DNA of 64,000 bases from Candidatus Omnitrophota bacterium (GTDB lineage Bacteria > Omnitrophota > Gorgyraeia > Zapsychrales > Fredricksoniimonadaceae), in assembly GCA_044225175.1 (NCBI GenBank), contig JBGAJA010000002.1, positions 408,991-472,990 of the forward strand, read 5' to 3'. The notes under the pieces were generated by a model. The model ran no database searches. It saw only the letters and a program-made list of their open reading frames with translations, and had not been told where the DNA came from. The translations under genes and the position numbers were made by a program. Shown here piece after piece: positions 4,025-64,000 of this stretch (its first letter is position 1; the number at the start of each line of letters is the position of its first letter).

Positions 4025-6547
4025 ATGCCCTATACTACAAACGATATTAAAGCAATTGAAGCCAAGTGGCAGAAATTCTGGGATGATCAGAAGACCTTTA
4101 AGGTTGAAGCGGATCCTTCTAAGAAGAAGTATTATGTCTTGGAAATGTTCCCATATCCCTCCGGCAAAATCCACATGGGCCATGTGCGCAATTACACAAT
4201 TGGCGATGTGATTGCCCGTTACAAAATGATGCAAGGTTTTAATGTACTACATCCCATTGGCTATGATGCCTTTGGACAACCCGCCGAAAACGCAGCAATC
4301 AAACACAAAACAAATCCCTCTGACTGGACATACAAATGCATTGAACAAATGCATGACGAATTAAAGAAGATGGGATTTTCTTATAACTGGGACCGTGAAT
4401 TCTCGACCTGTGATAGTGAATACTACAAATGGAATCAGTGGATTTTTATTAAGATGTATGAGAAGGGCTTAGCTTATAAGAAAGCTTCTTCCGTTAATTG
4501 GTGCCCTAGTTGTCAGACGACACTCGCCAATGAAGAAGTGATTGATGGGGCTTGTTGGCGGTGCAAAACAGTTGTGGATCAAAAAGATTTGGATCAATGG
4601 TATCTGAAGATCACTCAGTATGCTGAAAGCTTACTGGAAGATTTGAAACAGTTGGATCAATGGCCTTCACGTGTGCGTGCCATGCAAGAGAATTGGATTG
4701 GTAAAAGCTTTGGTGTGGAGATTTATTTCAAAATTGTAGGGGTGGGTTCCAAACCCACCCAACAAAAGGCAGGTTTAGAACCTGCCCCTACAGATGATGT
4801 AATCAAGGTTTTCACCACACGTCCGGATACTATCTTTGGTGCAACCTACGTCGTACTTGCCCCTGAACATCCCTTAGTTAAGAAATTGGTTAAAGGAACT
4901 CCTCAAGAAAAAGATGTTTTAGCATTTATCGAAAAGACGGCTAATAAAAGCAAGTCTATGCGTATGTCTGGTGGAGAACGTAAAGAAGGAATAGCTCTTG
5001 GGATTCATGCGATTAATCCAGTGAATGGAGAATCTATTCCAGTATTTATAGGGGACTATGTTCTCATGGATTATGGAACGGGTGCCATTATGGCAGTTCC
5101 AACACATGATCAGCGTGATTTCGAATTTGCCAACACGCATAAGCTTCCCATGCGCATTGTTATTCAGCATCCCAAAGAAGCCTTTACATTAGAAAGCATG
5201 TCTCAAGCCTATGAGGATCCAGGTGTTCTTGTGAATTCCAAGGAATTTGATGGCATTGGTAATGAAGAAGCTAAGAAGAAAATTGGCGAATGGATGACTC
5301 AAGAAAAAATGGGTAAGATCACTGTCCACTGGCGCTTGCGTGATTGGCTTATTTCTCGTCAGCGTTATTGGGGAACGCCCATTCCTATGATCTATTGTGA
5401 TAGTTGCGGGGTTGTACCTGTTCCTTATGAACAATTGCCCGTTGAATTGCCTAAGAATGTTGAGATTACAGGTCAGGGAGGCAGTCCATTAAATCGTGTG
5501 TCAGAATTCGTGAATGTGTCTTGTCCTAAATGCAAGAAAGCAGCCCGTCGTGAAACAGACACGATGGCCACATTCTTTGATTCTTCTTGGTATTTCTTAA
5601 GATTTTGCTCCGCACATAATGATAAAGAGGTGTTTAATAAGAATAATGCCAAGTATTGGATGACAGTTGATCAATACATTGGGGGGATTGAACATGCCAT
5701 TCTTCATTTGCTCTATTCTCGTTTCTTCACCAAGTTCTTTAAAGATTTAGGATTGATTGACTCAAGCGAACCTTTTAACCGTTTACTGACTCAAGGGATG
5801 GTGCTTAAAGATGGGGAGGTCATGTCTAAGTCTCGGGGCAATACGGTGGATCCAGATGAAGTCTTAAGCAAATATGGTGCAGATACACTTCGTTTGTTCA
5901 TTCTTTTTGCAGCTCCTCCAGAAGATCAACTGGAGTGGAATAGCGACGGGCTAGAAGGTTCTTGGAGGTTCTTGAATCGTGTGTATCAAATGGTTGAGAA
6001 ACGTTATGTGAAAGATGTAAAAGAAGAGGGTAAGGATCAGGTATTGGAACGAGCCCGTCATTCTGCCATCAAACAAATCACTCAATCGTTTGAAGAAGGA
6101 TATAAATTTAATACCGCTATCAGCCAGATGATGATTTTGGCAAATGCCATTGATAAATATAAGCCAGAATCCACGAGCACATTGAATCAAGCCATCGAAA
6201 CGCTCGTCTTATTATTAGGCCCTTTTGCGCCTCACATGTGCGAAGAGCTTTGGCAAATGATGTCCGCCAGAGGCGGATCCGCCTTTGGCGGAGGTCAAGA
6301 CTATTCTAGTATTAGCCGTGTTGCCTGGCCCAAATTCGATGAAGCAGCCCTTATCCAAGATGAAATCACATATGCCATTCAAATCAATGGTAAGGTCAGA
6401 AGCGAAGTCAAAGCCTCAGTCACAGCCACCCAAGAAGACTTGCAGAAGTTAGTCTTAGCCGATGCCAATGTCGCCCGCTATTTAGAGGGCGCCACCATCA
6501 AAAAATTCATTGTCGTCCCAAAGAAATTAGTTAGTATAGTCATTTAG
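4025..6547 (+). CDS. leuS: Leucyl-tRNA synthetase.
   Basis: HMGH motif (PSGKIHMGHVRNY), a KMSKS-like SKSRGN motif, 840 aa. The gene carries two in-frame palindromic insertions (4736-4791 and 6266-6299). Confidence 0.95.
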   Translation: MPYTTNDIKAIEAKWQKFWDDQKTFKVEADPSKKKYYVLEMFPYPSGKIHMGHVRNYTIGDVIARYKMMQGFNVLHPIGYDAFGQPAENAAIKHKTNPSDWTYKCIEQMHDELKKMGFSYNWDREFSTCDSEYYKWNQWIFIKMYEKGLAYKKASSVNWCPSCQTTLANEEVIDGACWRCKTVVDQKDLDQWYLKITQYAESLLEDLKQLDQWPSRVRAMQENWIGKSFGVEIYFKIVGVGSKPTQQKAGLEPAPTDDVIKVFTTRPDTIFGATYVVLAPEHPLVKKLVKGTPQEKDVLAFIEKTANKSKSMRMSGGERKEGIALGIHAINPVNGESIPVFIGDYVLMDYGTGAIMAVPTHDQRDFEFANTHKLPMRIVIQHPKEAFTLESMSQAYEDPGVLVNSKEFDGIGNEEAKKKIGEWMTQEKMGKITVHWRLRDWLISRQRYWGTPIPMIYCDSCGVVPVPYEQLPVELPKNVEITGQGGSPLNRVSEFVNVSCPKCKKAARRETDTMATFFDSSWYFLRFCSAHNDKEVFNKNNAKYWMTVDQYIGGIEHAILHLLYSRFFTKFFKDLGLIDSSEPFNRLLTQGMVLKDGEVMSKSRGNTVDPDEVLSKYGADTLRLFILFAAPPEDQLEWNSDGLEGSWRFLNRVYQMVEKRYVKDVKEEGKDQVLERARHSAIKQITQSFEEGYKFNTAISQMMILANAIDKYKPESTSTLNQAIETLVLLLGPFAPHMCEELWQMMSARGGSAFGGGQDYSSISRVAWPKFDEAALIQDEITYAIQINGKVRSEVKASVTATQEDLQKLVLADANVARYLEGATIKKFIVVPKKLVSIVI
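4736..4791. repeat. REP-like nested palindrome, family A, with outer stem GTAGGG...CCCTAC. It lies in frame inside leuS.
   Basis: The sequence is gtaggggtgggttccaaacccacccaacaaaaggcaggtttagaacctgcccctac. It contains two internal hairpins, GGTGGGTT/AACCCACC and GCAGGTTT/AACCTGC. Its translation within leuS is VGVGSKPTQQKAGLEPAPT. Confidence 0.85.
6266..6299. repeat. 22-bp perfect palindrome CCAGAGGCGGATCCGCCTTTGG plus flanks, family D. It lies in frame inside leuS.
   Basis: A nearly identical 34-nt stretch is found at 29555-29588 inside the second large secreted protein gene. Within leuS it translates as ARGGSAFGGGQ. Confidence 0.7.
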
Positions 6548-6619: not shown

Positions 6620-7171
6620 ATGTCTGAAAGAAAGCAATTACGGTTAAAGAATTATGAATATTCTGCGGCGGGGTATTATTTTGTGACGATTTGTGTTCAG
6701 GATCGTGTTCGTTTGTTTGGGGAAATAATAAATAATGAAATGATTTTAAACGAAACCGGAGAAATTCTAAAATTTACATGGTTTGATTTGGTAAATCATA
6801 ATGCAAATATTATATTGGATCATTTTGTGATCATGCCGAATCATATTCATGGAATTATACAAATCGTAGGGGCGGGTTCTGAACCCGCCTTTATGCCCAA
6901 TGGGGCAGGTTTGGAACCTGCCCCTACGACATTGGCAGAAATTGTTCGTCAATTTAAAACATTTTCATCAAAACGAATCAATAAATTATGCAATACGCCG
7001 GGCACAAAAATCTGGCAACGCAATTATTATGAACGTGTTATCAGAAATGAAAAAGAATTGAATAATATTCGACAATATATACAAGACAATCCTATAAATT
7101 GGGAATTTGATGAAAATTATTGTAGAGGTGGGTTCCAAACCCACCTTTTATGCGTAATAGGGCAGGTTTAG
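6620..7171 (+). mobile_element. REP-associated tyrosine transposase (RAYT, IS200/IS605-like TnpA_REP). It carries an internal REP insertion and a 3' end encoded by a REP.
   Basis: HuH motif (PNHIHGII) and the RAYT signature WQRNYYERVIRNE. A REP copy lies in frame between these two motifs, and another overlaps the last 16 codons. Confidence 0.85.
6866..6927. repeat. REP-like palindrome, family A, in frame inside the RAYT gene.
   Basis: The sequence is gtaggggcgggttctgaacccgcctttatgcccaatggggcaggtttggaacctgcccctac. It translates as VGAGSEPAFMPNGAGLEPAPT. Confidence 0.85.
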
Positions 7172-8513: not shown

Positions 8514-10156
8514 TGAATTTCCCAAGACCAACAGATTTAAATGATGCACAGTGGAATGCCGTTTCCCACGATGATTCCCACCTTATGATCGTCGCAGGAC
8601 CAGGCACAGGAAAGACGCACACAATCACCTATCGTATTATTCGCACCATTCAAAAATTAAAACAAGATCAAAAGATCCTAGCGATCACATTTACCAATAA
8701 AGCAGCCAATCAGATGCGTGAGCGTTTGGAGGCAAAGATTCCCAATTATTGGAGACAGGTAAATGTAGGTACATTTCATCGTTTTGCTTTGAGTTTACTG
8801 CGGGAGTTTAGTCAGTACTTGCCTTTGCCAAAAGATTTTCAAATTGCTCTTCCTGAAGATATTCAGGAATGTCTAAGTGAGATTTTCCCTCAGAAAAGCC
8901 CCTTGCAGCGCAAAGAAACGCTGGAGGCAATATCTTGGATGAAATCCACTCAATTGGCTATTGATCCCTCCGAAGACTTCCAGAAATACCACCGCTTCTT
9001 AAGAGCCAAAGGTATGATTGATTTTGATGATATCTTACGAGAAGTTTTGATGCTTTTGGAGAATGAAGAGGTGTTACATAAGGTGCAAGGCAGATATCGT
9101 TACATCTTTGTGGACGAATATCAGGATGTGAATATTGTTCAGAATGCGTTGTTGAAATTGATTGTAGGGGTAACCCCCTGTGGTTGCCCTGAAGATAAGG
9201 GCAGGCACGGGGGCCTGCCCCTACTGACGGTTATCGGTGACCCTAATCAATCGATCTATGGCTTTCGTGGTTCTCAGGTGAAATTCTTTAATCGTTTCGA
9301 AGAAGATTTTCCAGGAGCTGCCAAGCTATACCTAAATGAGAATTATCGTTCAACAGCTAATCTTCTAACGGCCAGTTCTCAGGTCATCAATAAAGACCCT
9401 GGAGGCAAAGTTCCAGAGGCCATTGCCAAGATCTACGACGAGGGAAGACTTGTTATTCATGAAGCAGCAACTGACAGAGCAGAAGCTGAGTATGTGGCTC
9501 ATCAGATTGAACAATTGATTGGCGGAGTGAGCATGTTCTCTCAAGACTCCAATCGTGTTGAAACATATAGGCAGGCGCACCGTAGTTTTGGCGATATCGC
9601 TATTTTGTATCGCCTTAACACCCAAAAGAATGTATTGATTGAAGCGCTTGATCATTTAGGAATTCCTTATAGTGTGTCTTCTAAACCTAAGGTAGGGGCG
9701 GCTCTTGCAGACGCCCTTTTAGGGCAGGGGCAAGCCCTGCCCCTACAGACACAGGAACAGAAAGATGAACAGATATTAAATTGTTTCGAAGAATCCTTGG
9801 ACTACAAAGTAGAAAAGGTCTCTCTTTTAACATTACATGCTGCCAAAGGTTTGGAATTTCCTGTTGTTTTTATTGTCGGATGCGAAGCAAAGCTAATTCC
9901 CTTGGACATCAACGATCTTAAAGGCGACATCCAAGAAGAACGCCGGCTTTTTTATGTGGGGATGACACGAGCAAAAGAACATTTGTTTTTAACTAGAGCA
10001 GGACGGCGTCAAATCTTTGGAACCACGGTATTTAATCCACCCTCTATGTTTTTAGCTGACATTGAAGAAGACCTTAAAGCCTATGAGAATTCCAAGCTTC
10101 GCCGAAAATTATCTAAAAGCAAGGAAGCCGAGAAACAGCAGTTGAAATTGTTTTAG
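8513..10156 (+). CDS. Short UvrD/PcrA/Rep-family SF1 DNA helicase.
   Basis: Walker A (AGPGTGKTHT), motif II (FVDEYQD), motif III (VIGDPNQSIYGFRG), and a C-terminal segment LTLHAAKGLEFPVVF..FYVGMTRAK. It carries two in-frame REP insertions. Confidence 0.8.
   Translation: MNFPRPTDLNDAQWNAVSHDDSHLMIVAGPGTGKTHTITYRIIRTIQKLKQDQKILAITFTNKAANQMRERLEAKIPNYWRQVNVGTFHRFALSLLREFSQYLPLPKDFQIALPEDIQECLSEIFPQKSPLQRKETLEAISWMKSTQLAIDPSEDFQKYHRFLRAKGMIDFDDILREVLMLLENEEVLHKVQGRYRYIFVDEYQDVNIVQNALLKLIVGVTPCGCPEDKGRHGGLPLLTVIGDPNQSIYGFRGSQVKFFNRFEEDFPGAAKLYLNENYRSTANLLTASSQVINKDPGGKVPEAIAKIYDEGRLVIHEAATDRAEAEYVAHQIEQLIGGVSMFSQDSNRVETYRQAHRSFGDIAILYRLNTQKNVLIEALDHLGIPYSVSSKPKVGAALADALLGQGQALPLQTQEQKDEQILNCFEESLDYKVEKVSLLTLHAAKGLEFPVVFIVGCEAKLIPLDINDLKGDIQEERRLFYVGMTRAKEHLFLTRAGRRQIFGTTVFNPPSMFLADIEEDLKAYENSKLRRKLSKSKEAEKQQLKLF
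9164..9224. repeat. REP-like palindrome, family A variant, in frame inside the UvrD-like helicase.
   Basis: The sequence is gtaggggtaaccccctgtggttgccctgaagataagggcaggcacgggggcctgcccctac. It translates as VGVTPCGCPEDKGRHGGLPLL and lies immediately before motif III. Confidence 0.8.
9692..9746. repeat. REP-like palindrome, family A variant, in frame inside the UvrD-like helicase.
   Basis: The sequence is gtaggggcggctcttgcagacgcccttttagggcaggggcaagccctgcccctac. It translates as VGAALADALLGQGQALPLQ. Confidence 0.8.
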
Positions 10157-10168
10157 ATTTTTACTATA

Positions 10169-10257
10169 GTGTCATTGCGAAGCCGATGTTTTTGTCGGCT
10201 GAAGCAATCTTACATGACAGATTGCTTCGTCGCAAAAAGCGCTCCTCGCAATGACAC
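10169..10257. repeat. Complex nested palindrome, family B, with outer inverted repeat GTGTCATTGCGA...TCGCAATGACAC.
   Basis: Homologous copies are at 14454-14535 and 18603-18687. The GTG start proposed for comEA by the ORF track lies inside this element. Confidence 0.8.
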
Positions 10258-10318
10258 TGTACTTATAAGCCAATCCCCTGGCTTTTTTAATAACTTCCCA
10301 ACCATATATTATTTTCCC

Positions 10319-10654
10319 ATGATTCATTTAACACCTCAGGAAAAATCTGTAGTTATATGTCTTTGTGTGATTACTCTATGCGGATCACTCGTTCATGTGG
10401 GTTTGCAGAAAGAGATACGTGTGTTTGATTGGCTGCACACAGCCCAGAAGAAGTCATTTGCAACCACGATCAATATTAATAAAGCCTCAATGGAGGAGTT
10501 GTTAAGGGTTCCTGGCATTGGGCCCAAGACAGCAGAATTCATCTTAGATTATCGAACCTCAAAGGGAAAATTCACCAATCTGAATCCTTTGCAAGAGGCT
10601 AGAGGCATGAGCCCGGAGCGTTATGAACGTATTAGCAAATATCTTAAAATTTGA
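10319..10654 (+). CDS. comEA: ComEA-like helix-hairpin-helix DNA-binding protein. The start was trimmed to MIHLTPQEK after the repeat; the ORF track starts at a GTG at 10169.
   Basis: N-terminal TM/signal-like segment, and ASMEELLRVPGIGPKTAEFILDYR, a tandem HhH motif typical of ComEA. Confidence 0.65.
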   Translation: MIHLTPQEKSVVICLCVITLCGSLVHVGLQKEIRVFDWLHTAQKKSFATTININKASMEELLRVPGIGPKTAEFILDYRTSKGKFTNLNPLQEARGMSPERYERISKYLKI

Positions 10655-12173
10655 TTCAAAAATCCATAGGCCCTGTTTCTTTTTGAGCGTAGCCATGGCA
10701 TTAGGAATTCTCCTGGGACGTTTTTTTCATTGTCCTTGGATGATCTGGGTCATATTAACTGTGGTTTTACTTTATCTGAGTTGTTTGATAGGGAGATTCT
10801 CCGTCGTACTACTTCATATTGCAGTTGTATTTCTAGGGGCTTTCTATTATCAGAGTTATTATCTATTTCCCTCCAACCATATCGCCTTTATGTCATTTTA
10901 TGATCAGAAAAAGATCTCGGAAGTGGAAGGGGTGATTGATTCGGATATTCAAGTCAAGTCTACCCCCTATGGAACGAAGAGGGTTTTTGAATTGGATCTA
11001 AAAGAGATTAATTTTGACGGCACAAGGCAAAAAGCAACCGGCAGAATACTTATTAATATGTTTCAGCGCATAGATTTGAATTACGGAGATCGTCTTAGAA
11101 TAGAAGGCGTTTTATTTAAGCCTAAGAGTGATCCAAGTGAGAAATTTTCCTACCAACGATATTTGGAAGATCATGGCCTCTTTTTTATCCTTAGTGTTGG
11201 TAAACGAAAAGGAGTGGTGATAGTTAGTCACAATGAAGGGCATTGGTGGATCAAAGCATCGTTAAAGATTAGAGAGAGATTTAAGCGTGTTCTTGAGAAA
11301 TATTTGGAACCTCAAGAAGTGGGGATGATCCAAGCGATGACCCTTGGCGATAAATCCACAATGAGTAAGGATATGTATGAATTATTTAGTAAGACAGGGA
11401 CCGCACATATTATTGCAATTAGCGGCATGAATATGGCGATCATTGGGGCAATTATTCTCTTTATACTTAAAGTAATGCATTGTTCTCGCCGCTGGCAGCT
11501 GATTTTAACAGCATTATTCTTATTATGTTATGCGGTTATTTGTGGTTGGTCAGCTTCGGTCGTACGTTCTGTCATTATGGCGTCCGTCATTTTGAGTAGT
11601 TTTTGCCTCGAACATGAGTCGGATGGAATCAATTCCCTCGGATTTGCAGCAATTATCCTGTTTCTTTTTAATCCGTCTAATCTTTTCGATATCGGTTTTC
11701 AATTATCTTTCTTGTGTGTGTTCATTATCATGATTTTCTATCCAAAGTTTCAGCCAATGGTTGAAAAGACTATAGAAAATACATTCCTTAAGTATGTAAC
11801 CCAGGTCTTATTGATATCCGTAATCATCTGGATTGGAATCACGCCTTTAATTGCCTATCAATTTGGAATTATTTCGTTTATTTCGATCATTGCTAATATT
11901 CCAATTGTTGTCCTATCGGACATGATCATAGCTTTGAGTTTAGGTCTAATGATGATCGGGTTATGTTGTGCCCCTCTGGCGGTTATATTTGCAGGTTCTC
12001 TCAAAGCAGTCTTTAATTTAACCCTTCTTTTAGTTTTTGGTTTTGCTCAGATCCCCGGAGGATATGTGTATATCATGAACATACAACAATGGTGCGTGAT
12101 CTTGTATTACGCATTTTTGCTCACAATTATATTTATTGTGATGAATAAAAGAGCTTCTTTTAAAAAGCATTAA
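10623..12173 (+). CDS. comEC: ComEC/Rec2-family DNA internalisation channel, lacking the C-terminal metallo-beta-lactamase domain.
   Basis: Polytopic membrane protein with a DUF4131-like N-terminus and a competence-domain core (AHIIAISGMNMAI). 516 aa, compared with about 750 aa for full ComEC. Confidence 0.7.
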   Translation: MNVLANILKFDSKIHRPCFFLSVAMALGILLGRFFHCPWMIWVILTVVLLYLSCLIGRFSVVLLHIAVVFLGAFYYQSYYLFPSNHIAFMSFYDQKKISEVEGVIDSDIQVKSTPYGTKRVFELDLKEINFDGTRQKATGRILINMFQRIDLNYGDRLRIEGVLFKPKSDPSEKFSYQRYLEDHGLFFILSVGKRKGVVIVSHNEGHWWIKASLKIRERFKRVLEKYLEPQEVGMIQAMTLGDKSTMSKDMYELFSKTGTAHIIAISGMNMAIIGAIILFILKVMHCSRRWQLILTALFLLCYAVICGWSASVVRSVIMASVILSSFCLEHESDGINSLGFAAIILFLFNPSNLFDIGFQLSFLCVFIIMIFYPKFQPMVEKTIENTFLKYVTQVLLISVIIWIGITPLIAYQFGIISFISIIANIPIVVLSDMIIALSLGLMMIGLCCAPLAVIFAGSLKAVFNLTLLLVFGFAQIPGGYVYIMNIQQWCVILYYAFLLTIIFIVMNKRASFKKH

Positions 12174-13804
12174 TGAGAGTATGTTAGCGGAGAAATATCT
12201 TTTGCTTGCTGCAGATATTCTTGAGACTTCTTAGAGTCGCCTAATTCTTTGGAGATATTGCTTAGTATAAAATATGTTTTATGAGACAAAGGAGATAGAC
12301 GGGCAGCTTCAAGAAAATCTTGCTCGGCTTGTTTGAGGAAGGAAGTATCTTTGGCTATGAAATACTTTCTGATGTTGAGAGATCCCAAGGCAGAAGGATA
12401 GCGAAACTCTGTTGGGTCTAATAATCTGGCCTTTTCAAAATAAACTTCTGATTGCGTTATCTTTCCTGAACTAAAGAAAACCATCCCTTTATTGTAATCT
12501 AAGAGAGCTAAAGAAATTCGTGTGCCTAATATTAATAGGCTAATGATGAGAATGGCTAAGAATCCAAAGATCCATTGGTCTCGTTTTGTTGATTTTAGTG
12601 ATTCTTGGTTTATTTTATAAGAGTTAATGAATGCCCCAAAGCCTGCTAATACAATCCAAAAGAATAAACTCACGTTTGGTCTAAGTAGGGTAAAGTTGCT
12701 TAAATTGTCGATAAAAAAGAAGCTTAATGACCAAATAAAGGCAATCAGTACTATTCTGCGACTATATTCGTTTTCTTTTCTTAAGGCGAACAAGCTCTCT
12801 TTGATAAATAATCCAACCATACACAGGCCAGCTAGAAATCCCAACACGCCTGTTTCTATCCACAGTTGTAAATAGCTGTTGTGCACATAGGCGCTGTATC
12901 CAAAAAGATAGGTGATGTATTTTTTACTGACTAAACTAAAAGTATCGAGCCCGCTTCCAATCCATGGATGATCTTTGAGGACTAAAAACGTACATCTAAG
13001 GTAGTCCCATCGGGCCCCTAGTGAGAAATCTTTTCGAAGAAGAAGGATGAGAATACAAAAGGCAAGGGTTGCGACGATAATGCCAAAGAAATATTTCCTA
13101 TTCTCTGGTTTATTCGACCATTGTTTAAAGATTAATGGAGTGAGAATGAGAGTTGTGATGATGAAATTGAGCGTACATAGGAACGCAAAGGTCAACAGAA
13201 ACAAACCTAAGCAAACACATAAAAGTAAGATGAATGCTCTTTTTTTCCACTGATTTTTCGTTAGCGTAATCGTGGCCCACAGAAAGGGGGTTAAAAGCAT
13301 TAAGAACCCAGCTAAAACATTAGGAAGCTGAAATATAGATCCGACCCGTTTGACTGATCCACTCACGGGATCTTTAAGAAAGAAATACTCCCAGAATCCA
13401 AAGAGGATAACCAAAACAAGACTTATCTGCATATAGCTCCACACATCTAAGATTTGTTTTGAATCTTTTAGAGTGGCAGCCAATATATAAAATAAAGCAA
13501 TATAAGAAATGGTAACAATAAAGAAATTAACAGAAGCCGATGCATCCACGCTTGAGCTTAAGGATAAACACAATGCTCCCACCAAAAGATAAATGGATAG
13601 ATCAAAAGGAGTGCGTGGAAACTTAGCTTGTGCTCGGATTTGATTAAAGATCCAGATTAAAGAAAGAACGAATATAGAACCTGCAATAACCAGGTCTGAG
13701 AGGCGTTCTTTAGTGTAAACGTAGTTATCTGGAAAAAGGTGCACAATGATGAGTCGTAATAAAACAATGGCGCCGCATGCACGAATAAAAAAGGTATAAT
13801 TCAT
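12170..13804 (-). CDS. O-antigen ligase (Wzy_C) family membrane protein with a C-terminal TPR region.
   Basis: Multi-TM protein with a YVHNSYLQLWIETGVLG ligase motif and C-terminal TPR-like repeats. Confidence 0.55.
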   Translation of the reverse strand: MNYTFFIRACGAIVLLRLIIVHLFPDNYVYTKERLSDLVIAGSIFVLSLIWIFNQIRAQAKFPRTPFDLSIYLLVGALCLSLSSSVDASASVNFFIVTISYIALFYILAATLKDSKQILDVWSYMQISLVLVILFGFWEYFFLKDPVSGSVKRVGSIFQLPNVLAGFLMLLTPFLWATITLTKNQWKKRAFILLLCVCLGLFLLTFAFLCTLNFIITTLILTPLIFKQWSNKPENRKYFFGIIVATLAFCILILLLRKDFSLGARWDYLRCTFLVLKDHPWIGSGLDTFSLVSKKYITYLFGYSAYVHNSYLQLWIETGVLGFLAGLCMVGLFIKESLFALRKENEYSRRIVLIAFIWSLSFFFIDNLSNFTLLRPNVSLFFWIVLAGFGAFINSYKINQESLKSTKRDQWIFGFLAILIISLLILGTRISLALLDYNKGMVFFSSGKITQSEVYFEKARLLDPTEFRYPSALGSLNIRKYFIAKDTSFLKQAEQDFLEAARLSPLSHKTYFILSNISKELGDSKKSQEYLQQAKDISPLTYSH

Positions 13805-13867
13805 AAGATAAAAAAGAATACCACCATCTTATAAAGTCAACAATCAAATTAACCTAAAAATTGATAC

Positions 13868-13895
13868 TTGACAAAATCGATGGATATGCTATCTT
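13868..13895 (+). promoter_or_regulatory. Sigma70-type promoter: TTGACA, 16-nt spacer, TGcTATCTT (extended -10).
   Basis: Consensus -35 and an extended -10. The same architecture (..ATGCTATCTT) recurs at 21696-21723 and 26643-26671. Confidence 0.55.
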
Positions 13896-13920
13896 ATCAC
13901 TCAGAAGAAGCGAGTGCTAG
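13894..13920 (+). promoter_or_regulatory. CIRCE (HrcA operator) inverted repeat TTATCACTC-N9-GAGTGCTAG.
   Basis: Differs from the consensus TTAGCACTC-N9-GAGTGCTAA at two positions. It overlaps the -10 and lies upstream of hsp20, and hrcA is present in the window. Confidence 0.65.
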
Positions 13921-14031
13921 AATATGTAAAGATGAGAGGAGAAATCCTCATTTTTTAGGTTTAATAATTAGCAGTCATAAAGTATGAGTGATAATTCTTA
14001 TTAATGTTAACTTAATAACAAGGAGGGTAAT

Positions 14032-14445
14032 ATGTCATTAGTCAGATTCTGTGGTAATCCGGTTACATCTTCATTTTGGCCAACTTTGGAGGAAGCTTTA
14101 TCCCAAAATTCTCTGCCTTGGTTACCTGAGGTTGATATTTTGGAAGAAAAAGATCATTATAAGATCAAAGCTGATCTTCCGGGTGTTAAGAAAGAGGATG
14201 TTAAGCTATCTTTTGAAGATGGTGTGCTGACCTTGGATGGTGAGCGTAAGAATGAAACAGAACAAAAAGAGACAAACTATCATCGTGTAGAACGCAGTTA
14301 TGGTCGTTTTGTTCGCTCTTTCAATCTGGGGCACGAAGTTGATGCTAATAAGATCCAGGCTAGTTACAAAGATGGAGTTTTAGAAATCACTGTACCTAAA
14401 ACTGAAAAAGCTCAACCAAAAGCCATTGATATAAGGGTAGAATAA
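14032..14445 (+). CDS. Hsp20/alpha-crystallin small heat shock protein.
   Basis: Alpha-crystallin domain (DHYKIKADLPGVKKEDVKLSFEDGVLTLDGER), 137 aa. Confidence 0.9.
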   Translation: MSLVRFCGNPVTSSFWPTLEEALSQNSLPWLPEVDILEEKDHYKIKADLPGVKKEDVKLSFEDGVLTLDGERKNETEQKETNYHRVERSYGRFVRSFNLGHEVDANKIQASYKDGVLEITVPKTEKAQPKAIDIRVE

Positions 14446-14453
14446 TAATTCAC

Positions 14454-14535
14454 GTGTCATTGCGAGCGAACGCAGTGAGTGTGGCAATCTCTCACGATCA
14501 AGATTGCTTCGTCGCTTCGCTCCTCGCAATGACAC
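14454..14535. repeat. Family B nested palindrome between hsp20 and clpB.
   Basis: The sequence is gtgtcattgcgagcgaacgcagtgagtgtggcaatctctcacgatcaagattgcttcgtcgcttcgctcctcgcaatgacac. Confidence 0.8.
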
Positions 14536-14553
14536 AAAGAAAAAGGTGAACAT

Positions 14554-16677
14554 ATGCAAATGGAACAACAACCCAAACCACTAGAAGCATACGGCAAGGA
14601 TTTAACTGATTTAGCCAGCAAGGGGAAGCTTGATCCTGTTATTGGACGGGATGAAGAGATTCGTCGTGTCATTCAAGTGCTGTCACGTAGGACTAAGAAT
14701 AATCCTGTGCTTATTGGTGAGCCAGGGGTTGGAAAAACAGCCATTGTTGAAGGTTTAGCACAAAGAATATTTCTAGGTGACGTTCCTGAAGGCTTAAAGC
14801 ATAAGAAAGTGATTGTTTTAGACATGGGAGCCTTAGTGGCTGGTGCAAAATTCAGAGGAGAATTTGAGGAACGTTTAAAAGCAGTTTTGAAGGAGGTTGA
14901 AAGTAGTGATGGATCCATTATTTTATTCATTGATGAGTTACATACAATTGTTGGAGCAGGACGAGCGGAGGGAAGTGCAGATGCCGCCAATTTACTTAAA
15001 CCTGCTTTAAGTCGTGGCATGTTGCGCTGCGTGGGTGCTACCACATTAGATGAGTATCGCCAATATATTGAGAAAGATGCTGCTTTAGAGCGTCGTTTTC
15101 AACCTGTTATGGTGAATGAACCAACGGTTGAAGATACGATTGCTATTTTACGTGGTTTAAAAGAAAAATATGAAGTGCATCATGGGGTGCGTATTCAAGA
15201 TTCCGCTATCATCGCGGCCGCCACTATGAGCCAACGCTATATTACAGAACGTTTCCTTCCAGATAAGGCGATCGACCTGATTGATGAAGCAGCATCCAAG
15301 CTTCGTATTGAAATCGACAGCATGCCTCAAGAGCTAGATCAGAATGAAAGAGAAATTCGTCGACTTGAAATTGAGCGTCAGGCCCTTAAGAAAGAGTCTG
15401 ATGCTGCATCTAAAGAGAGAGTCAAAGGAATCGAAGATGAGCTTACGACTTTAAAAGAAGAAAATAAAAAGATGCGAGCCCAATGGCAAGCTGAGAAGGT
15501 CGTGATTGACCAAATCCGCAAAATTAAAACCGAAATCGAGTCTGCCAAATTAGAAGAAACAAAAGCTGAGAAGACAGGAGACCTCAATAAGGTAGCCCAG
15601 ATCCGCTATGGCGTTCTAGTTGATTTAGAAAAACAATTAGTAGCTAAGAACAAGGAGCTTGCCAAGCAACAAAAAGATGGAGGTATGCTAAAAGAAGAAG
15701 TTGACGATCAAGACATTGCTGAAATCATCTCCAAATGGACTAAGATTCCTCTTTCAAAGCTTATGCAGGGTGAAACAGAAAAACTAGTTTCCATGGAAGC
15801 TGAGCTTAAGAAAAGGGTTGTGGGTCAAGATAAGGCTATTGACGCTATTTCTGCCTGTATCCGTCGAAGCCGAACAGGTTTAAGTGATCCAAACAGACCC
15901 TTAGGTTCATTTATCTTTGTTGGGCCTACGGGGGTAGGAAAAACCGAACTTGCCAAGGCGCTTGCCGGCTTTTTGTTTGATGATGATAACTCTGTGATTC
16001 GTATTGATATGAGTGAATACATGGAGAAGCACAGCACATCTCGTTTGATTGGAGCGCCTCCAGGATATGTGGGTTATGATGAAGGCGGGCAATTGACAGA
16101 AGCTGTCCGTCGAAGACCATTCTCTGTTGTGCTCTTTGATGAAATCGAAAAGGCCCATTCAGATGTGTTCAATGTGCTTTTGCAGCTCTTGGATGATGGT
16201 CGCCTGACGGATTCCCAAGGAAGGGTTGTGAACTTCAAGAATACGATTGTGATCATGACATCTAACATCGGAACAGCCGAGCTTTCTGAGATGACCAATC
16301 AAAAAGAAATGGAAGACCATATTCAAAAAGCCCTACGTGCTCACTTCCGTCCAGAATTCTTAAATCGTGTGGATGAGATTGTAGTCTTCTCACGTTTAAA
16401 AGAAGAGCAGATCAAGAAAATTGTTGGTCTTCAGTTGGATATTTTGACAGAGCGTTTGAGTCAGCGAAAGATATCTTTGCATGTTTCTGATAAAGCAAAA
16501 GCTTTGCTTGCTCGTCAAGGATATGATCCTATTTATGGGGCTAGACCCTTAAAGAGAGCTATTCAAACCTTGGTGCAAGATCCAATTGCTTTGCGTCTTT
16601 TGCAAAATGAAGCTAAAGAAGGTGACACCATTGATGTGGATGCGCAAGGTGAAGATTTGGCAATTGAGGTTAAATAA
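14554..16677 (+). CDS. clpB: ClpB-type AAA+ disaggregase lacking the N-terminal domain.
   Basis: Two AAA+ modules (GEPGVGKT and GPTGVGKT), a coiled-coil middle domain, and a C-terminal ClpB signature. At 707 aa it is shorter than the usual roughly 860 aa. The family-B repeat directly upstream leaves no room for an N-domain. Confidence 0.9.
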
Positions 16678-16706
16678 TTATTAACTGTTCATCGGGAGGA
16701 GGACAT

Positions 16707-17336
16707 ATGAACACAATGACATTATCTAAACTCGTTCTAGCTTCAACATTAGCCTGCACTATGATTAGTGCGCCAGTTTATGCAGATGAAAATGAGGATT
16801 TGAGAAATCAAGTCAAGGCTCTGCAAGATAAGGTAAGTCAACTAGAACAGCAAGCTGCTATTCAAAGATCTCAAAGAGAACCATCTAGGACTGACTCCCA
16901 AACATCGAATGCAGATGTATATGATCCATGGGACCCATTTCAAGAAATGCGAATGATTGAGCGACAAATGAATCAACTCATGAAAGCAAACATGGTCGAT
17001 TTTAATCCTAGGGAAGATATCAAGCAGACTGCAGATCATTATATTGTCAGTATGGATATTCCAGGAATGGAGAAAGATAAGATCAATGTTGAAGTTAAAT
17101 CAGGGATGCTTATTGTTTCAGGTGAAAGAAAAAGTGAAGTTAAAGAACAGAAACCAAATCAGTTCTATCGCCAAGAACGTTCTTTTGGCCATTTTTTAAG
17201 AACAATGCCCTTACCATCTGATGCCAAGGCGGATCATATTGAAGCCAAATACACCAATGGTGTTCTGACGGTTACAGTTCCTCGTGAGAAGGCGTCCAAG
17301 GAAAAGAAAGTAGGACAAAAAGTAGTTGTGAAATAA
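16707..17336 (+). CDS. Secreted (signal-peptide) Hsp20-family protein.
   Basis: N-terminal signal peptide (LVLASTLACTMISAPVYA), an alpha-crystallin domain (ADHYIVSMDIPGMEKDKINVEV), and an RBS-like GGGAGGAGG upstream. Confidence 0.7.
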   Translation: MNTMTLSKLVLASTLACTMISAPVYADENEDLRNQVKALQDKVSQLEQQAAIQRSQREPSRTDSQTSNADVYDPWDPFQEMRMIERQMNQLMKANMVDFNPREDIKQTADHYIVSMDIPGMEKDKINVEVKSGMLIVSGERKSEVKEQKPNQFYRQERSFGHFLRTMPLPSDAKADHIEAKYTNGVLTVTVPREKASKEKKVGQKVVVK

Positions 17337-17348
17337 ATTGGAGGAGCT

Positions 17349-17870
17349 ATGAAATTAAAAGGCCAAAAGATTCTGATGTTTGTGGATGACATTTATGAAG
17401 ACATGGAACTTATGTATCCTAAGTATCGTTTGATTGAAGAAGGAGCTCAAGTGGTGGTAGCGGGTCCCAAAGCGGGACAGATTTATAAAGGGAAACATGG
17501 TTATCCTTGCAAAAGCGATGAGGCAATTGCAAATATTCAGTCTAAAGATTTCATAGCTCTAGTCATACCAGGGGGTTTTGCACCTGATCAATTAAGACGG
17601 GATCCAAAAGTATTAAGTCTCACAAAGGAATTCCATCAGGCTGGAAAACTGGTAGCTCATATTTGTCATGCCGGATGGATTCCAATCTCAGCTGGAGTAG
17701 TTAAGGGTATTAAATGCACATCCACTCCTGGGATTAAAGACGATCTAGTCAACGCTGGAGCCACATGGGTAGATGAGACTGTTGTGGTTGATAAGAACCA
17801 TATTACAAGCCGTAAACCAGATGATTTGCCTATTTTTTGTAAATCGATTATAGACTTCCTTTCTAGATAA
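17349..17870 (+). CDS. DJ-1/PfpI-family protein (protease/deglycase-like).
   Basis: PfpI-like fold sequence with a nucleophile elbow, AHICHAGW. Confidence 0.8.
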   Translation: MKLKGQKILMFVDDIYEDMELMYPKYRLIEEGAQVVVAGPKAGQIYKGKHGYPCKSDEAIANIQSKDFIALVIPGGFAPDQLRRDPKVLSLTKEFHQAGKLVAHICHAGWIPISAGVVKGIKCTSTPGIKDDLVNAGATWVDETVVVDKNHITSRKPDDLPIFCKSIIDFLSR

Positions 17871-17938
17871 CGGTTTTTTTTCAATATAGCCTCACAGGAC
17901 TTGATTTTTCATGTTTATATGGTTTACTTTATATAAAT

Positions 17939-20900
17939 ATGAGAAAACAAACCACAATGACCTACATCAGCCGAAGGCTGATCAGCCTCTGGCTGACAGC
18001 TGCTTTTATAGTTGGCCCTTTGCCCAGGGCTCAGGCGCAAGATTTTACCTTACCTAAGCCTGGTGTCATGGTGCATCTAAGCCCTGAATTTACACCTGCT
18101 CATTTACAGGGCATGACCATTCATCCTGGTAATGCCTTACAATTCGATTTCTTAATTCACAAAGGCGATAAGAATTTACAAGCAGATCAGAAGAAAGAAG
18201 AATATAAGAAACTGATCAAGTATTTCCTCGCTTCTTTGACCATTCCTGATGAAGATCAATGGGTGAACCTTTCTCCCTATGAGAAGGATCGGATCATTAA
18301 GGATGATTTTGGTAAGACTGAGATGGGCCGAGATCTTTTAGCTCAGGATTATCTATTAAAACAAATTACCTCTAGCCTCATTTATCCCGAAGATAGTTTA
18401 GGACAGAAGTTCTGGGACAAGATCTATGAACGTGCCTGGAAGGAATATCATACGACCAATATCCCAGTGAATACGTTTAATAAGGTCTGGATTGTTCCGG
18501 ATGAAGCGATTGTGTATGAGAGTGGCAATAGCGCTTACATTCTCAAAAGTCATTTGAAGGTCATGCTAGAGGAAGATTATTTGTCATTAGAAAAGCATTC
18601 TGGTGTCATGGCGAACCACAAAGGGGTGAAGCAATTTTTTAAATCTGAAAAGATTGCCCCGTCGCCTTCGGCTCCTCGCAATGACACAAGTTCTCTTGGT
18701 TCGCAGGTAGTCCGCGAAATTGTACTTCCTGCTCTTGAGAAGGAAGTTAATGAAGGGGAGAATTTTTCTAATCTTCGTCAAATGTACAGCGGGATGGTTC
18801 TGGCGACATGGTACAAGAAAGCCCTTAAAGAATCTTTACTGGGAAAGTTTTATACTGATAAAGCCAAGGTCAAAGGAGTTAATCAGGATCCACAAAATAA
18901 TCAAGCCATTTACCAACAGTATCTCAAAGCTTTCAAGAAGGGCTGTTTTAATTATATCAAAGAAGATGTAGACAAATACACCAAGGAATCGGTTCCTAGA
19001 AAATATTTCTCCGGCGGTTTTCACCGCCCTATGTTCAGAAATGGATCCGAAGTAACCTTTATCCCTGCAGGGAAGTTGAATAGAACCTTAGCGATGGCAG
19101 CTATAGTTTCATCGCAAGAATCTCTAGAGCAGGCCACTGTTGCGTTTAATGCAGCAGGAGAGATAAGGAACAGTGCTCAATCGGCAGGCGATCAGGCGAT
19201 GATGGAAAATCCTCCGAAAGACTCCAATGCGGGAAGAGAAACATTAACCTTAGAAGCTTTGGAGAGAATTATGAGCTCCTATATCCAATCGAATGAAAAA
19301 TCGATCTATGGGTTTATTCAAACTTTGATACATAGCGTAGGAGGGGAAGCAAACATAACTGCGGATCCTAAAGGAATCGAACAAGGCGCTACAATTAGCT
19401 TTGCTTTTAGTTTTCGCAGAAATATTGAGTTATCAGGCAAAACATATAGTGCCCTTGAAGTGTCAACATTTATCCTAACCGAACTTGAAAGAAAGCTTAA
19501 TGAAGAATATGGCCGCAACTATAAAGTTGAAAGCCATATCATAGACAACCACGAGAGAGAATTGCATGATGACAGGAATTTTCAACTTGTGGTTGATATC
19601 GATAGAAGAACATTTGAAAAGGCGAAAATGCGCTATAAACAATTAATGTCCTTTTCGGATATTCTTAGTCGAATTGATGAAATACCCAGAACAGCACGCC
19701 CTAATATTTTATTTATGGTGCCTAGAGACGGCAACAGCCCAATTTATTTGATGCTTCAAAATACCGGACGATACATATTCTTTGACCATGTCACTGCCTT
19801 TAGTGTATTTAATGAAGAGCTTTATTATTCTTATTTGGATCCACAGGAACAAGGCAATGTAATTTTTGTTTGTTTGAATGCAAAAGGTGTTATTAGGCAA
19901 TTAAGACCAAATGAGGTCCCAAAGAGCCTCAGAGAAGAATTTGGTATACAAGAATCTGATTTGATGGATTTAAATGGTAATTATAAGGCCAGTTTTATTA
20001 TTGGCGGGTTCAATGATAATAATGTAATTGATTCCTTAACTCAGCTAAAAGGCGTCAAAATGGAAGATGTTGAGAATAAGATGAAAGAAACTTCACAAAC
20101 AGATGCAAAATCGATTAAGGATTTATTAAAAGATCAAAACACAAAGGTAACAAAGAGAGGATTTACACATCAAGAAATAGCTGAAGCGCTTTTTATAGCT
20201 ATGCAAAATATACCTGGAAAATATTTTAAAATTGCCAACTATGATTTCTTAATTGAAAAATCAACAAGTGATTCAAATAAAGATCCTGTATTCATAAACC
20301 CCAACAATTTTCTATCGCCAGACGCACGAAAAGTCCAATATACGCTAAGGAACATCTCATTGGATAGATCAATTACATTTTTTGCATCAACTGCTTACGA
20401 TATTGCGAATTTTGGTTTTTACGGGGACCTTGATCCATTAAATATGATCGAAGTATTAGGATTAAAACCTGTGGGAAGAGATACTGGCTCTTCTGAGGAT
20501 CAGCCAAATATTATCGATGGTAAAGCTCGAATCAATCCTGATGCAAGGATGCCAGATATTAAGAAAAAGATGCGAGCAAGTAACGAAGAGTTAGAGCGAT
20601 ATCATGCTGGGATTACAGCGGCATTAACGGCCGTAGTGAAGATTAATTTAGGCAAAGATGATATAGGAGAGACAAAAATTATTAATTTTGGATCAACATC
20701 AAGAGATACGCACATCGATAATTTTTCTAATGAAGGTTTAGATATTGATTATCTTATTCAATTTAGTACTGAAGATGAGTTGAAGCTGTTTAGACGAAAC
20801 CTGAAAACATTCGGTTTTTCTGCTGCAAAGGTTATTTTTCAAGATAAAGGTTTTGAATTTGCGCAGGGACAGAGAGGTTTGACTCCTGAAGGTCAATATT

Positions 20901-21661
20901 TACAGTCGTTTTATGTTAGAGAAAAGGGTCAAAAGATATGGATTCTATTGCATGTAAAATTTGCAGTAACGAAAAAAGATTTAATTTATATAGATTGGTT
21001 TGACCGGCAAATGACTCAAATTGAAAATTTAGGAGAAAGCCGTGAACAAATTGCCAGAGAAATTCGTAAGATGAAAAGCGTTATTCAAGATATGCGAAAG
21101 GGAAAAACTTATAAGCGTCGTGCTATTTCTATTGCCTTTGAGCAATTGGTTATTCAATCAGCGGGTGCTTCAGATTATGGGCGCACAATATTAGGAGTTG
21201 GAAGTTTTCAAAAGGCCATCGATCGAGTTTATGAGGCAGGTTATGATAAGCTAAATAAACGTGTAATCCCTCTTCAAGAAGTTCAAGATACTTTTCAAAT
21301 TTTTGATCCGGAGAAGAGAACTAATTATATAGCTACTTTTACAGTTCAGGAATGGAATGATTTAGTCAATTTAGTTATAAAAATTAAAGAAACACCAGAT
21401 TTTCTTAAGGAGATTATCGTAGGCAACCCAGGGAACTTGACAGATTCAAACAAAGCGATGACAGCAAAAGGTGGTGTTGACTTTAACTCTGCGAATTTGA
21501 ATTTACAAATCAAGCGTGATGGCCGTGGGGTGCCGCTGCCTTTAGCCCAGCAGGATATGGCCCAACTAAACGCCATTGAAGGTTTTGAAGTTAATATCTT
21601 GGAAATTAAACCTGCTGTTAATGTTTCCATCATTTCTGAATTAAAAACCATTGCAAAATAA
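17939..21661 (+). CDS. Large secreted modular protein, paralog 1 (1240 aa). It has a conserved N-terminal domain, a putative pol-beta-like nucleotidyltransferase motif in the middle region, and a conserved C-terminal domain.
   Basis: Signal peptide. The N-terminal roughly 330 aa and C-terminal roughly 90 aa are homologous to the 26711 and 63512 ORFs (KLIKYFLASLTIP..WVNLSPYEKDRI). A GS..(15)..DID motif lies near 20690-20749. Confidence 0.6.
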   Translation: MRKQTTMTYISRRLISLWLTAAFIVGPLPRAQAQDFTLPKPGVMVHLSPEFTPAHLQGMTIHPGNALQFDFLIHKGDKNLQADQKKEEYKKLIKYFLASLTIPDEDQWVNLSPYEKDRIIKDDFGKTEMGRDLLAQDYLLKQITSSLIYPEDSLGQKFWDKIYERAWKEYHTTNIPVNTFNKVWIVPDEAIVYESGNSAYILKSHLKVMLEEDYLSLEKHSGVMANHKGVKQFFKSEKIAPSPSAPRNDTSSLGSQVVREIVLPALEKEVNEGENFSNLRQMYSGMVLATWYKKALKESLLGKFYTDKAKVKGVNQDPQNNQAIYQQYLKAFKKGCFNYIKEDVDKYTKESVPRKYFSGGFHRPMFRNGSEVTFIPAGKLNRTLAMAAIVSSQESLEQATVAFNAAGEIRNSAQSAGDQAMMENPPKDSNAGRETLTLEALERIMSSYIQSNEKSIYGFIQTLIHSVGGEANITADPKGIEQGATISFAFSFRRNIELSGKTYSALEVSTFILTELERKLNEEYGRNYKVESHIIDNHERELHDDRNFQLVVDIDRRTFEKAKMRYKQLMSFSDILSRIDEIPRTARPNILFMVPRDGNSPIYLMLQNTGRYIFFDHVTAFSVFNEELYYSYLDPQEQGNVIFVCLNAKGVIRQLRPNEVPKSLREEFGIQESDLMDLNGNYKASFIIGGFNDNNVIDSLTQLKGVKMEDVENKMKETSQTDAKSIKDLLKDQNTKVTKRGFTHQEIAEALFIAMQNIPGKYFKIANYDFLIEKSTSDSNKDPVFINPNNFLSPDARKVQYTLRNISLDRSITFFASTAYDIANFGFYGDLDPLNMIEVLGLKPVGRDTGSSEDQPNIIDGKARINPDARMPDIKKKMRASNEELERYHAGITAALTAVVKINLGKDDIGETKIINFGSTSRDTHIDNFSNEGLDIDYLIQFSTEDELKLFRRNLKTFGFSAAKVIFQDKGFEFAQGQRGLTPEGQYLQSFYVREKGQKIWILLHVKFAVTKKDLIYIDWFDRQMTQIENLGESREQIAREIRKMKSVIQDMRKGKTYKRRAISIAFEQLVIQSAGASDYGRTILGVGSFQKAIDRVYEAGYDKLNKRVIPLQEVQDTFQIFDPEKRTNYIATFTVQEWNDLVNLVIKIKETPDFLKEIIVGNPGNLTDSNKAMTAKGGVDFNSANLNLQIKRDGRGVPLPLAQQDMAQLNAIEGFEVNILEIKPAVNVSIISELKTIAK
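18603..18687. repeat. Degenerate family B palindrome, in frame inside the paralog-1 gene.
   Basis: The sequence is gtgtcatggcgaacc...gaagattgccccgtcgccttcggctcctcgcaatgacac. It translates as SGVMANHKGVKQFFKSEKIAPSPSAPRNDTSS and lies exactly in a segment that is hypervariable between paralogs. Confidence 0.7.
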
Positions 21662-63479: not shown

Positions 63480-63511
63480 AATTATATATATACATGGCAT
63501 ACTTTTGCCAT

Positions 63512-64000
63512 CCTATGTTTAAACGTCTTATTGCCTCTATTGTCTGTCTTTGCTTTATTTCTTCAACTGTTCACGTTTCCTATGCCCAGACAGGTTTTAA
63601 ACCTGTCTCTACGTTAAATTTGCCAGAACCAGGCACTATGGTAGGCCCCTCAGTACCTTTTACACCTTTGTCCTTAAAAGGCCTAGTAATTAACCCTAAA
63701 AAGCCTTTGGAATTTCAATTCATTGTGGATACGGGTACAAATCATACCCCTCCAGATATTCAATCCGAATCCACCAAATTAATCAAATACTTCCTAGCCG
63801 GCCTAACGATTCCTGAAGGAGACCTGTGGGTGAATTTAAGCCCCTATGAGAAGGAACGAATCACCCCCCAAGCCTTAGGCCAGACCGAGTTAGGGCGAGA
63901 TTTGCTGGCGCAAGACTATATCTTAAAGCAGTTAACTGCCTCTTTGATCTATCCTGAGCGTGACCTAGGTAAGGAGTTCTGGAGCCGGGTGTATCAACAG
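63512..64000 (+). CDS. Large secreted modular protein, paralog 3 (N-terminal fragment only; it continues past the window).
   Basis: Signal peptide and the conserved N-terminal domain, including KLIKYFLAGLTIPEGDLWVNLSPYEKERI...LLAQDYILKQLTASLIYPE. Confidence 0.6.

Follow-up and report, generated by a model that had tools for sequence, protein, structure and literature searches.

The DNA analysed here is a 64-kb window (the whole stretch, with a G+C content of 37-43%) of an Omnitrophota contig that is also found in Logan run SRR28480385. Three palindromes of approximately 85 bp are dispersed in it, at positions 10169-10257 (copy 1), 14454-14535 (copy 2) and 18603-18687 (copy 3), and sequence, motif matches and folds place them where the original prediction had claimed them. 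Copies 1 and 2 begin 13 and 9 nt past the stop codons of a UvrD-like gene and of hsp20, respectively, and each lies between co-directional genes, with comEA and clpB next in line. Copy 3 is located in frame in an ORF on the + strand (17939-21661) coding for a 1240-aa protein with a signal-peptide-like N-terminus, which belongs to a family whose homologues carry the names Candidatus Omnitrophica or Omnitrophota. The window further encodes a RAYT (6620-7171) with a Y1_Tnp domain and the HIH and YY motifs, which is flanked by, and itself contains, REPs of the GTAG type (GTAGGGGCAGG-type).

Sequence, fold and sites of the three copies

All three copies start with GTGTCAT(T/G)GCGA and end with CTCCTCGCAATGACAC, a 16-mer with exactly three + strand occurrences in the window, these being the exact right ends of the copies, and with a degenerate inverted partner at two of the three left ends. 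With up to three mismatches permitted, the 16-mer has five matches in the window against 0.31 expected, a number reached in 0 of 100 shuffles, and an internal motif, GATTGCTTCGTCGC, marks exactly the same three places. The copies had been described as mutually alignable, especially in their right halves, and they do align, with a mean column identity of 75%; near-identity is seen in the right halves, whereas the left ones are dissimilar. The right unit takes in each case the canonical "long" form GATTGC(T/C)(T/C)CGTCGC..GCTCCTCGCAATGACAC, and the left unit is idiosyncratic. TGTC is found at both outer ends of the copies and their tails are CT, CT and TT. Direct repeats flanking the three copies were not found.

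Copy 1 (89 bp; no strand is assigned to any of the three copies as a whole) is a complete HH heterodimer, that is, one with the tags outside, of TGTC-tagged REPs, as judged from sequence, fold and motif matches. Its left unit, on the + strand (10169-10210), consists of the tag (G)TGTC, ATTGC, GA, the mini-hairpin AGCCGA-TGTTTTTG-TCGGCT, GAA, GCAAT and the tail CT, and is separated by an 8-nt spacer (TACATGAC, 10211-10218) from a right unit on the - strand (10219-10257), an 'L-type' half that reads GTGTC ATTGC GA GGAGC-GC TTTTT GC-GAC GAA GCAAT CT. Copy 2 (82 bp) is likewise a complete HH heterodimer, with the canonical right half GATTGCTTCGTCGCTTCGCTCCTCGCAATGACAC, and copy 3 (85 bp) is a visibly degenerate one, with the left end GTCATGGCGA and the inner stem GCAATT/ATTGCC. 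All three form a long hairpin or cloverleaf of much greater stability than shuffled sequences reach, with free energies of -44.9 kcal/mol for copy 1 (z -7.3; a 12-bp outer stem plus three inner hairpins), -41.8 kcal/mol for copy 2 (z -6.1) and -29.3 kcal/mol for copy 3 (z -3.7). When the 64-kb window was searched generically for hairpins and dimers with a tag, and scanned for the motif, neither additional copies nor singletons nor YGTC-type REPs of another kind were detected. A possible extra copy at 8235 (GTCATTGCGGG) forms no hairpin and is considered a chance match.

Copy 1 is localised upstream of the terminator-like hairpin of the UvrD-like gene; this hairpin, with its T-run (10267-10284, in the interval 10267-10290 of the + strand), lies just 3' of the element and is separate from it. 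The element provides the GTG that opens ORF 10169-10654, the first 30 or so codons of which are element sequence and which reads through the terminator-like hairpin. The HHH_3 domain of the predicted product occupies residues 98-159 only, and the ATG at 10319, which precedes a hydrophobic segment, is a plausible comEA start. The location of the terminator-like hairpin between copy 1 and this ATG argues against a true start of the ORF at the GTG of the element, and the GTG-initiated extension of comEA, which had been called spurious, is very probably an artefact. For annotation, the element accounts for spurious ORFs and N-terminal extensions, of which this GTG start is an example. A promoter-like site (TTGAAA-17-TATAGT, 10/12 matches) at 10142-10170 extends into the beginning of copy 1; if it is real, the element would form part of the 5' leader of comEA-comEC.

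Copy 2 is separated by 9 nt from the preceding hsp20 stop (14445) and by 19 nt from the clpB ATG that follows (14554), so that its reported position between these two genes holds. The additional claim that it replaces the ClpB N-domain is unsupported and implausible in view of the sizes, since 82 bp of element in a spacer of 108 bp are no substitute for approximately 450 bp. The domain is truly absent: ClpB (14554-16677) is 707 aa long and lacks Clp_N, its nearest relatives are 845-900 aa long, and residue 4-10 or so of the query aligns with residue 155-160 or so of the relatives, leaving out an N-domain of approximately 150 aa. A few ClpB proteins without the N-domain are also found among the top 150 representatives, and nothing ties the loss to the element. 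The clpB gene belongs to a heat-shock cluster, hsp20-clpB-hsp20-DJ-1 ... hrcA-grpE-dnaK.

Unit structure and distribution of the element family

The family was traced by an exact-pattern scan (GTCATTGCGA-N40-70-CTCGCAATGAC, a pattern that demands a dimer) of viral contigs and of a species-representative genome collection. It is present in at least 120 viral contigs and in at least 120 genome contigs, the latter from Alpha-, Gamma- and Deltaproteobacteria, Bacteroidota, Chloroflexi, Patescibacteria, Planctomycetota, Nitrospirota and Cyanobacteria. Many of the genome matches listed come from Bradyrhizobium, and Micavibrio, sphingomonads (Sphingomonadales), Flavobacterium and Pedobacter are also represented; further copies occur on plasmids of Methylosinus, Methylocystis and Fischerella. 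The pooled viral and genome matches listed comprise 299 copies, most of them 72-91 bp long.

The element is composed of two inverted units and a short spacer, which together form a palindrome of approximately 80-90 bp with the tags outside. The grammar of the unit was derived from 543 half-units among the matches listed and reads, from 5' to 3', (C/T)GTC, ATTGC, GA, a variable segment, one of (G/C)GAA, GCG or GTG, then GCAAT, and finally CC or CT. The body begins with ATTGC and ends with GCAAT in all copies, the first pair of the stem thus being A-T. In a flank logo of 112 oriented copies among the matches listed, the position before GTC is C in 65% and T in 34%, from which the tag is read as YGTC, and position +1 is G in 57% and A in 33%; beyond this Y/R extension of the tag, neither conservation nor duplication of the flanks is observed in the same copies. 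GCAAT is followed by CC in 189 and by CT in 109 of 311 half-units among the matches listed. Tag and tail of the window copies are of the low-GC variants (TGTC, CT), like those of a Patescibacteria copy, and a Bradyrhizobium copy has CGTC and CCAG.

Only five base pairs (ATTGC/GCAAT) pair perfectly in the outer stem of a unit; they are followed by an internal loop, GA/GAA, and then by a second, variable stem-loop that ranges from GC-GNA-GC to stems of 8 bp. In the GC-GNA-GC form the N is free (A 36, C 25, G 11 and T 8 among the commonest forms of the matches listed). Longer variable hairpins include GCCC-AAA-GGGC, GGCTGAC-GAA-GTCAGCC and GCCCGCC-TA-GGCGGGC, and a perfect stem of at least 5 bp is found in 40 of 178 distinct long variable segments among the matches listed, against approximately three expected. 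These mini-hairpins have at least 60 different stem sequences, with the loops GAA, GCA or AAA, and such a variety of stems that nevertheless pair indicates that structure, rather than sequence, is maintained in this part of the unit.

The two halves of a dimer are mostly unequal, 189 of the 236 dimers among the matches listed being heterodimers. Their 2-nt tails are the same in 196 of the 236 dimers, against 114 expected. The triplet before GCAAT shows no co-variation between the halves of these dimers (130 observed against 126 expected), so the halves vary independently at that position. The tags lie outside in the three window copies and in every match to the dimer pattern. One singleton CGTC unit was seen (CGTCATTGCGAGCGGAGCGCAGCAATCTC), at 9544-9576 of locus L242, another Omnitrophota contig, within the queA (Queuosine_synth) gene. 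The length of the copies modulo 3 gives no signal when copies in long ORFs are compared with intergenic ones, spurious long ORFs being abundant in high-GC contigs. In related phage contigs (L001, L007, L010, L014, L020 and other viral loci) the REP dimer is located between the terminase and portal genes or directly 3' of the major capsid gene. The near-identical core across phyla and phages is unlike vertically inherited REPIN-RAYT systems and may point to horizontal transfer or to a role in the host.

The in-frame copy and the loop that contains it

The third copy had been reported to lie in frame in the 1240-aa protein and to add about 28 aa. It is indeed in frame, where it encodes G VMANHKGVKQFFKSEKIAPSPSAPRND T (residues 222-250), but the net excess of the loop over uninserted homologues is smaller, at approximately 17-25 aa. 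This loop, delimited by KVMLEEDY and (R/K)E(I/V)xLP, has a length of 19-72 aa (median 27) in 106 homologues and of 44 aa in the window protein. When the N-domain is modelled with AlphaFold2 (mean pLDDT 72), residues 226-244 have a pLDDT below 50 and are positioned between confident helices at 211-225 and 250-272, and the segment encoded by copy 3 is accordingly modelled in a tolerant, flexible loop.

Elements of the same family occupy the same loop in five other homologues (P0014, P0021, P0059, P0098 and P0099). At the DNA level, identical junctions (GGT|GTCATTGC ... AATGAC|ACAAGT) are found in the window gene and in three loci on other Omnitrophota contigs (L242, L243 and L245), the context being ...CAT (TCT) GGT|GTC ATT GC ... 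AAT GAC|ACA AGT ... GGC TCC CAA. In L242 the dimer is complete and its right mini-hairpin is enlarged by a further insertion, L243 has one unit left, as expected of a deletion between two direct ATTGC repeats, and L245 retains only a 15-nt remnant, GTCATTGCAAACACG, although a second paralogue in L245 has the full dimer at the same place. These common junctions rule out a fresh insertion and show copy 3 to be old and decaying. The neighbourhoods of the window, L242, L243 and L245 genes differ and three paralogues are encoded in the window alone, which suggests that the insertion predates part of the diversification of the protein family or, alternatively, that it was copied among paralogues. 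A natural decay series is thereby available in a single protein loop, from full dimer through single unit to 15-nt remnant, for following how palindromes decay in coding sequence. Odd low-complexity peptides (VIAS..KQS.., ..SAPRNDT) that occur within genuine proteins, in Omnitrophota as in many further phyla, are likewise accounted for by the element.

The loop following KVMLEEDYLSLxKH is a hotspot of palindrome insertion, with at least four palindrome families across the homologues, namely the TGTC-tagged one and three of other peptide types: VIPAKAGIQ (CGTC-1-like), VILSEAKDL..PQND and QPGDMF..KAPQGN. Loops that are visibly derived from repeats account for at least 25 of the 106 homologues. 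A more speculative and rather unlikely reading is that the loop serves as a recurrent landing pad into which four or more unrelated palindromic families insert, collapse and become recoded; if true, REP-type elements would generate surface-loop diversity, and even 'ordinary' loops of 26-28 aa (for example KHSGITASPSANNTHAIGSQ) might have arisen through decay of REP units.

The three paralogues in the window (17939-21661, 26711-29722 and 63500-64000) have in common an N-terminal domain of approximately 360 aa without a Pfam match. This domain has 1862 homologues, seems specific to Omnitrophota and is followed by fused C-terminal domains of various kinds (methyltransferase, CheY, GGDEF and others), many of the proteins ending in GGIDxNxANL..IKRDG.GVPLP. 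In the paralogue at 26711-29722 a palindromic insert (GGGGACATGTTCC...GGAACGTGTCCCC; approximately 27372-27470) is located in exactly the same loop as copy 3 and encodes PARGHVPD..VSPSTLPS..KATQGQ, and the related QPGDMF..KAPQGN is found in seven homologues. Repeats of other kinds also occur inside coding sequences of the window. REPs of the GTAG type (GTAGGGGCAGGTT..AACCTGCCC and variants) interrupt no reading frame and are apparently in frame in the intact ORFs of leuS (4735-4794), the UvrD-like gene (9195-9224 and 9723-9749), the RAYT ORF (6890-6930) and the N-terminus of the third paralogue (63589-63615); the RAYT gene thus contains a REP of the type that it presumably mobilises. A third palindromic family, GCCAGAGGCGGATCCGCCTTTGGCGGAG, is found in the 3' part of leuS (6266-6299), twice in the paralogue 26711-29722 (27773-27806 and 29555-29588) and, degenerate, at 17970-18003; outside leuS its translated copies read in frame as ..GGTASGG.. 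and ..RSAFGG...

Mobilisation and relation to known repeat systems

The three elements are likely to be HH heterodimers of TGTC/CGTC-tagged REPs, REPIN-like and non-autonomous, that belong to the CGTC super-family described by Di Nocera, De Gregorio & Rocco (2013, BMC Genomics 14:522; PMC3733652). They are filed under this super-family on its text description, at the level of the super-family rather than of one of the sub-families CGTC-1 to -4. The original prediction had set the family apart from the RAYT-associated REP of the same window and had spoken of a second, independent miniature-element system. The first point is borne out, the tag being YGTC rather than GTAG. In 80 metagenomic loci encoding relatives of the window RAYT, hairpins tagged GTAG/GTGG occur in 74, with 243 matches against 43-75 for control tags; in the same 80 loci YGTC-tagged hairpins are at background level (54) and GTCATTGCGAG units of the present family number zero. 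The RAYT clade of the window goes with GTAG REPs, not with the TGTC-tagged family. Of the second point, the independence of the repeat family stands, but a genome-specific system is not supported, as the family is pan-bacterial and phage-borne and no transposase is found beside 240 copies.

A cognate transposase, for which a search had been suggested, was sought in the surroundings of the 240 listed copies (120 viral and 120 genome loci, approximately 2 Mb), and none adjoins them. A phmmer search with the window RAYT against all ORFs of at least 90 aa in these 240 loci gave no match. All-against-all clustering of the ORFs recovered only phage structural genes (terminase, portal, major capsid) in the viral loci, and in the genome loci two multi-locus clusters (17 and 15 loci, without annotation) and otherwise small ones, none of them recurrent and transposase-like. 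In the text of the 2013 survey, CGTC REPs are presented as lacking a dedicated transposase, and no tyrosine transposase flanked by CGTC units is reported for any CGTC-positive species (PMC3733652). No later paper giving these REPs a transposase was found, and literature searches with sequence strings of the element returned chance primer matches only.

These results bear on the possibility that another RAYT, located elsewhere in the chromosome and flanked by these units, replicates them as a second dedicated REPIN-RAYT system. A dimer of inverted REPs has the architecture of a REPIN (PMC3116915, PMC3337134), and the RAYT in the window shows that the host supports such systems. Such a second system is nonetheless improbable, given that the window RAYT and 74 of its 80 relatives are flanked by GTAG/GTGG REPs and none by the present family, that CGTC-positive species lack the tyrosine transposase in the survey cited above, that the same core is found in many phyla and in phages, unlike the lineage-specific populations of REPINs, and that the three copies are not near-identical.

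Somewhat more doubtful still is a structured RNA or DNA signal of benefit to the host (an mRNA 3'-end stabiliser, an attenuator or a protein-binding site) that is kept by selection rather than by selfish spread. The very stable folds, the compensatory variation in the mini-hairpin and the sites 9-13 nt past stop codons between co-directional genes, as well as 3' of phage major-capsid genes, are in its favour, and such roles are proposed in the REP literature, as the text of PMC3733652 relates. A signal of this kind is at odds with the lack of a significant orientation bias relative to transcription among the matches listed (16 copies in the same and 28 in the opposite orientation to flanking genes when intergenic, 22 and 13 when inside ORFs) and with the presence of copies inside coding regions. 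Rfam gave no match over the whole window at gathering thresholds and none even at E<=5 over 10100-18800, copies 1 and 2 are without a T-run of their own, the terminator after copy 1 being a separate hairpin, and copy number is described in PMC3733652 as highly variable and the distribution among taxa as patchy. The least likely origin is a classical MITE, a deletion derivative of an IS with a DDE transposase that binds 12-13-bp terminal inverted repeats (GTGTCATTGCGAG) and moves it by cut-and-paste, for although the size of approximately 85 bp, the terminal inverted repeats, the several dispersed copies and the existence of in-frame MITE insertions elsewhere (PMC5896051) would fit, none of 112 oriented copies among the matches listed has a target site duplication (TSD), the conservation of their flanks being the palindromic Y/R tag extension only, no IS or transposase with these ends is encoded in the 240 loci (approximately 2 Mb), and each half is a hairpin with a tag of its own, whose mini-hairpin varies freely but with compensation, which is the grammar of a REP and not of a transposase-binding repeat.

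For dimers of CGTC-type REPs, the most likely route would be mobilisation in trans of a single-stranded DNA hairpin, in view of the tag-plus-hairpin grammar, the GNA mini-hairpins, the dimer form and the lack of TSDs. As in the analogous case of GTAG REPs and RAYTs, the units would be cut and rejoined by a structure-recognising enzyme (HUH/Y1-type or other) not encoded adjacently. More speculative and rather unlikely, like the landing-pad reading of the loop, is that CGTC REP dimers are moved by one enzyme common to phages and their hosts in different phyla. Widespread as it is, the family is here clearly uncoupled from the co-resident RAYT/GTAG-REP system. In the genome studied here it is probably old and essentially inactive, since the likeness of the three copies is only approximately 75% and the one within a gene is in decay. 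Intergenic copies may persist just past stop codons because this position is harmless, and as transcribed hairpins they may protect mRNA 3' ends from decay, and the in-frame copy may persist because a disordered surface loop tolerates the extra residues.

Like REPINs (Bertels & Rainey 2011; Nunvar et al. 2010), the elements consist of two inverted REPs in one long hairpin of approximately 80-110 bp, are non-autonomous, lack a TSD and have a presumed single-stranded DNA hairpin as substrate. They differ from them in the tag, which is YGTC and not GTAG/GTGG, in that no RAYT is flanked by these units, and in that the same sequence occurs across phyla and phages rather than as a lineage-specific, vertically inherited population. 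With the Rickettsia palindromic elements (RPE; Ogata et al. 2000/2002) they have in common that palindromes lie in frame in coding genes, are tolerated in surface-exposed segments and are inherited among homologues; sequence family and host are different, and the likeness to RPE-4 and RPE-6 is one of type, not of compared sequence. The Neisseria dRS3 (ATTCCC-N8-GGGAAT) shares the grammar of the super-family, a tag and an AT-initiated stem, but has another stem sequence, and its units occur in clustered arrays; of integration by phages or IS elements into the present copies no sign was seen. dRS3 is the integration target of filamentous prophages and of IS110-type enzymes. Such units are thus usable by site-specific enzymes.

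The closest resemblance is to the CGTC/TGTC REPs, with which the elements share a (C/T)GTC tag, an A-T-initiated stem and a CC(A)-type tail. According to the text of PMC3733652, the CGTC tag is "changed to TGTC" in many repeats, CCTC also being permitted, the stems start with a complementary A-T, and the tail is short and unpaired with the consensus CCA. Rickettsia RPE-4 (CGTC-4) and RPE-6 (CGTC-1) and Neisseria dRS3 (CGTC-1) are listed there as members (PMC3733652). HH dimers predominate and heterodimers are frequent in the published family, as here, where most dimers are heterodimers; the published family has no associated transposase, and none was found beside the 240 listed copies of the present one. 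Published CGTC REPs are placed between unidirectional or convergent ORFs, near the 3' end of the upstream ORF (PMC3733652), and window copies 1 and 2, at a short distance from the stop codon of the first of two co-directional genes, are similarly placed. Both include intragenic copies that encode 20-30 aa in frame, in the published case as units and as dimers, and the survey also records REPs in UvrD/Rep helicases and tRNA synthetases (PMC3733652). The taxa overlap in Bradyrhizobium, Micavibrio, sphingomonads and Bacteroidetes. The supplements of the survey contain neither ATTGCGAG strings nor peptide motifs of the element. The published unit is a plain stem of 8-9 bp with a 4-5-nt loop, bulged or complex stems being drawn in a modular manner (PMC3733652), and the present body, in which a stem of 5 bp is followed by the GA/GAA internal loop and the variable mini-hairpin, does not obviously match it; the dimers have a short spacer of mostly 14-30 nt. 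The 2013 survey did not include Omnitrophota, Patescibacteria or phage contigs, and the elements described here would extend the CGTC-tagged REP super-family to these two phyla and to phage genomes, with a unit body that is unusually bipartite.
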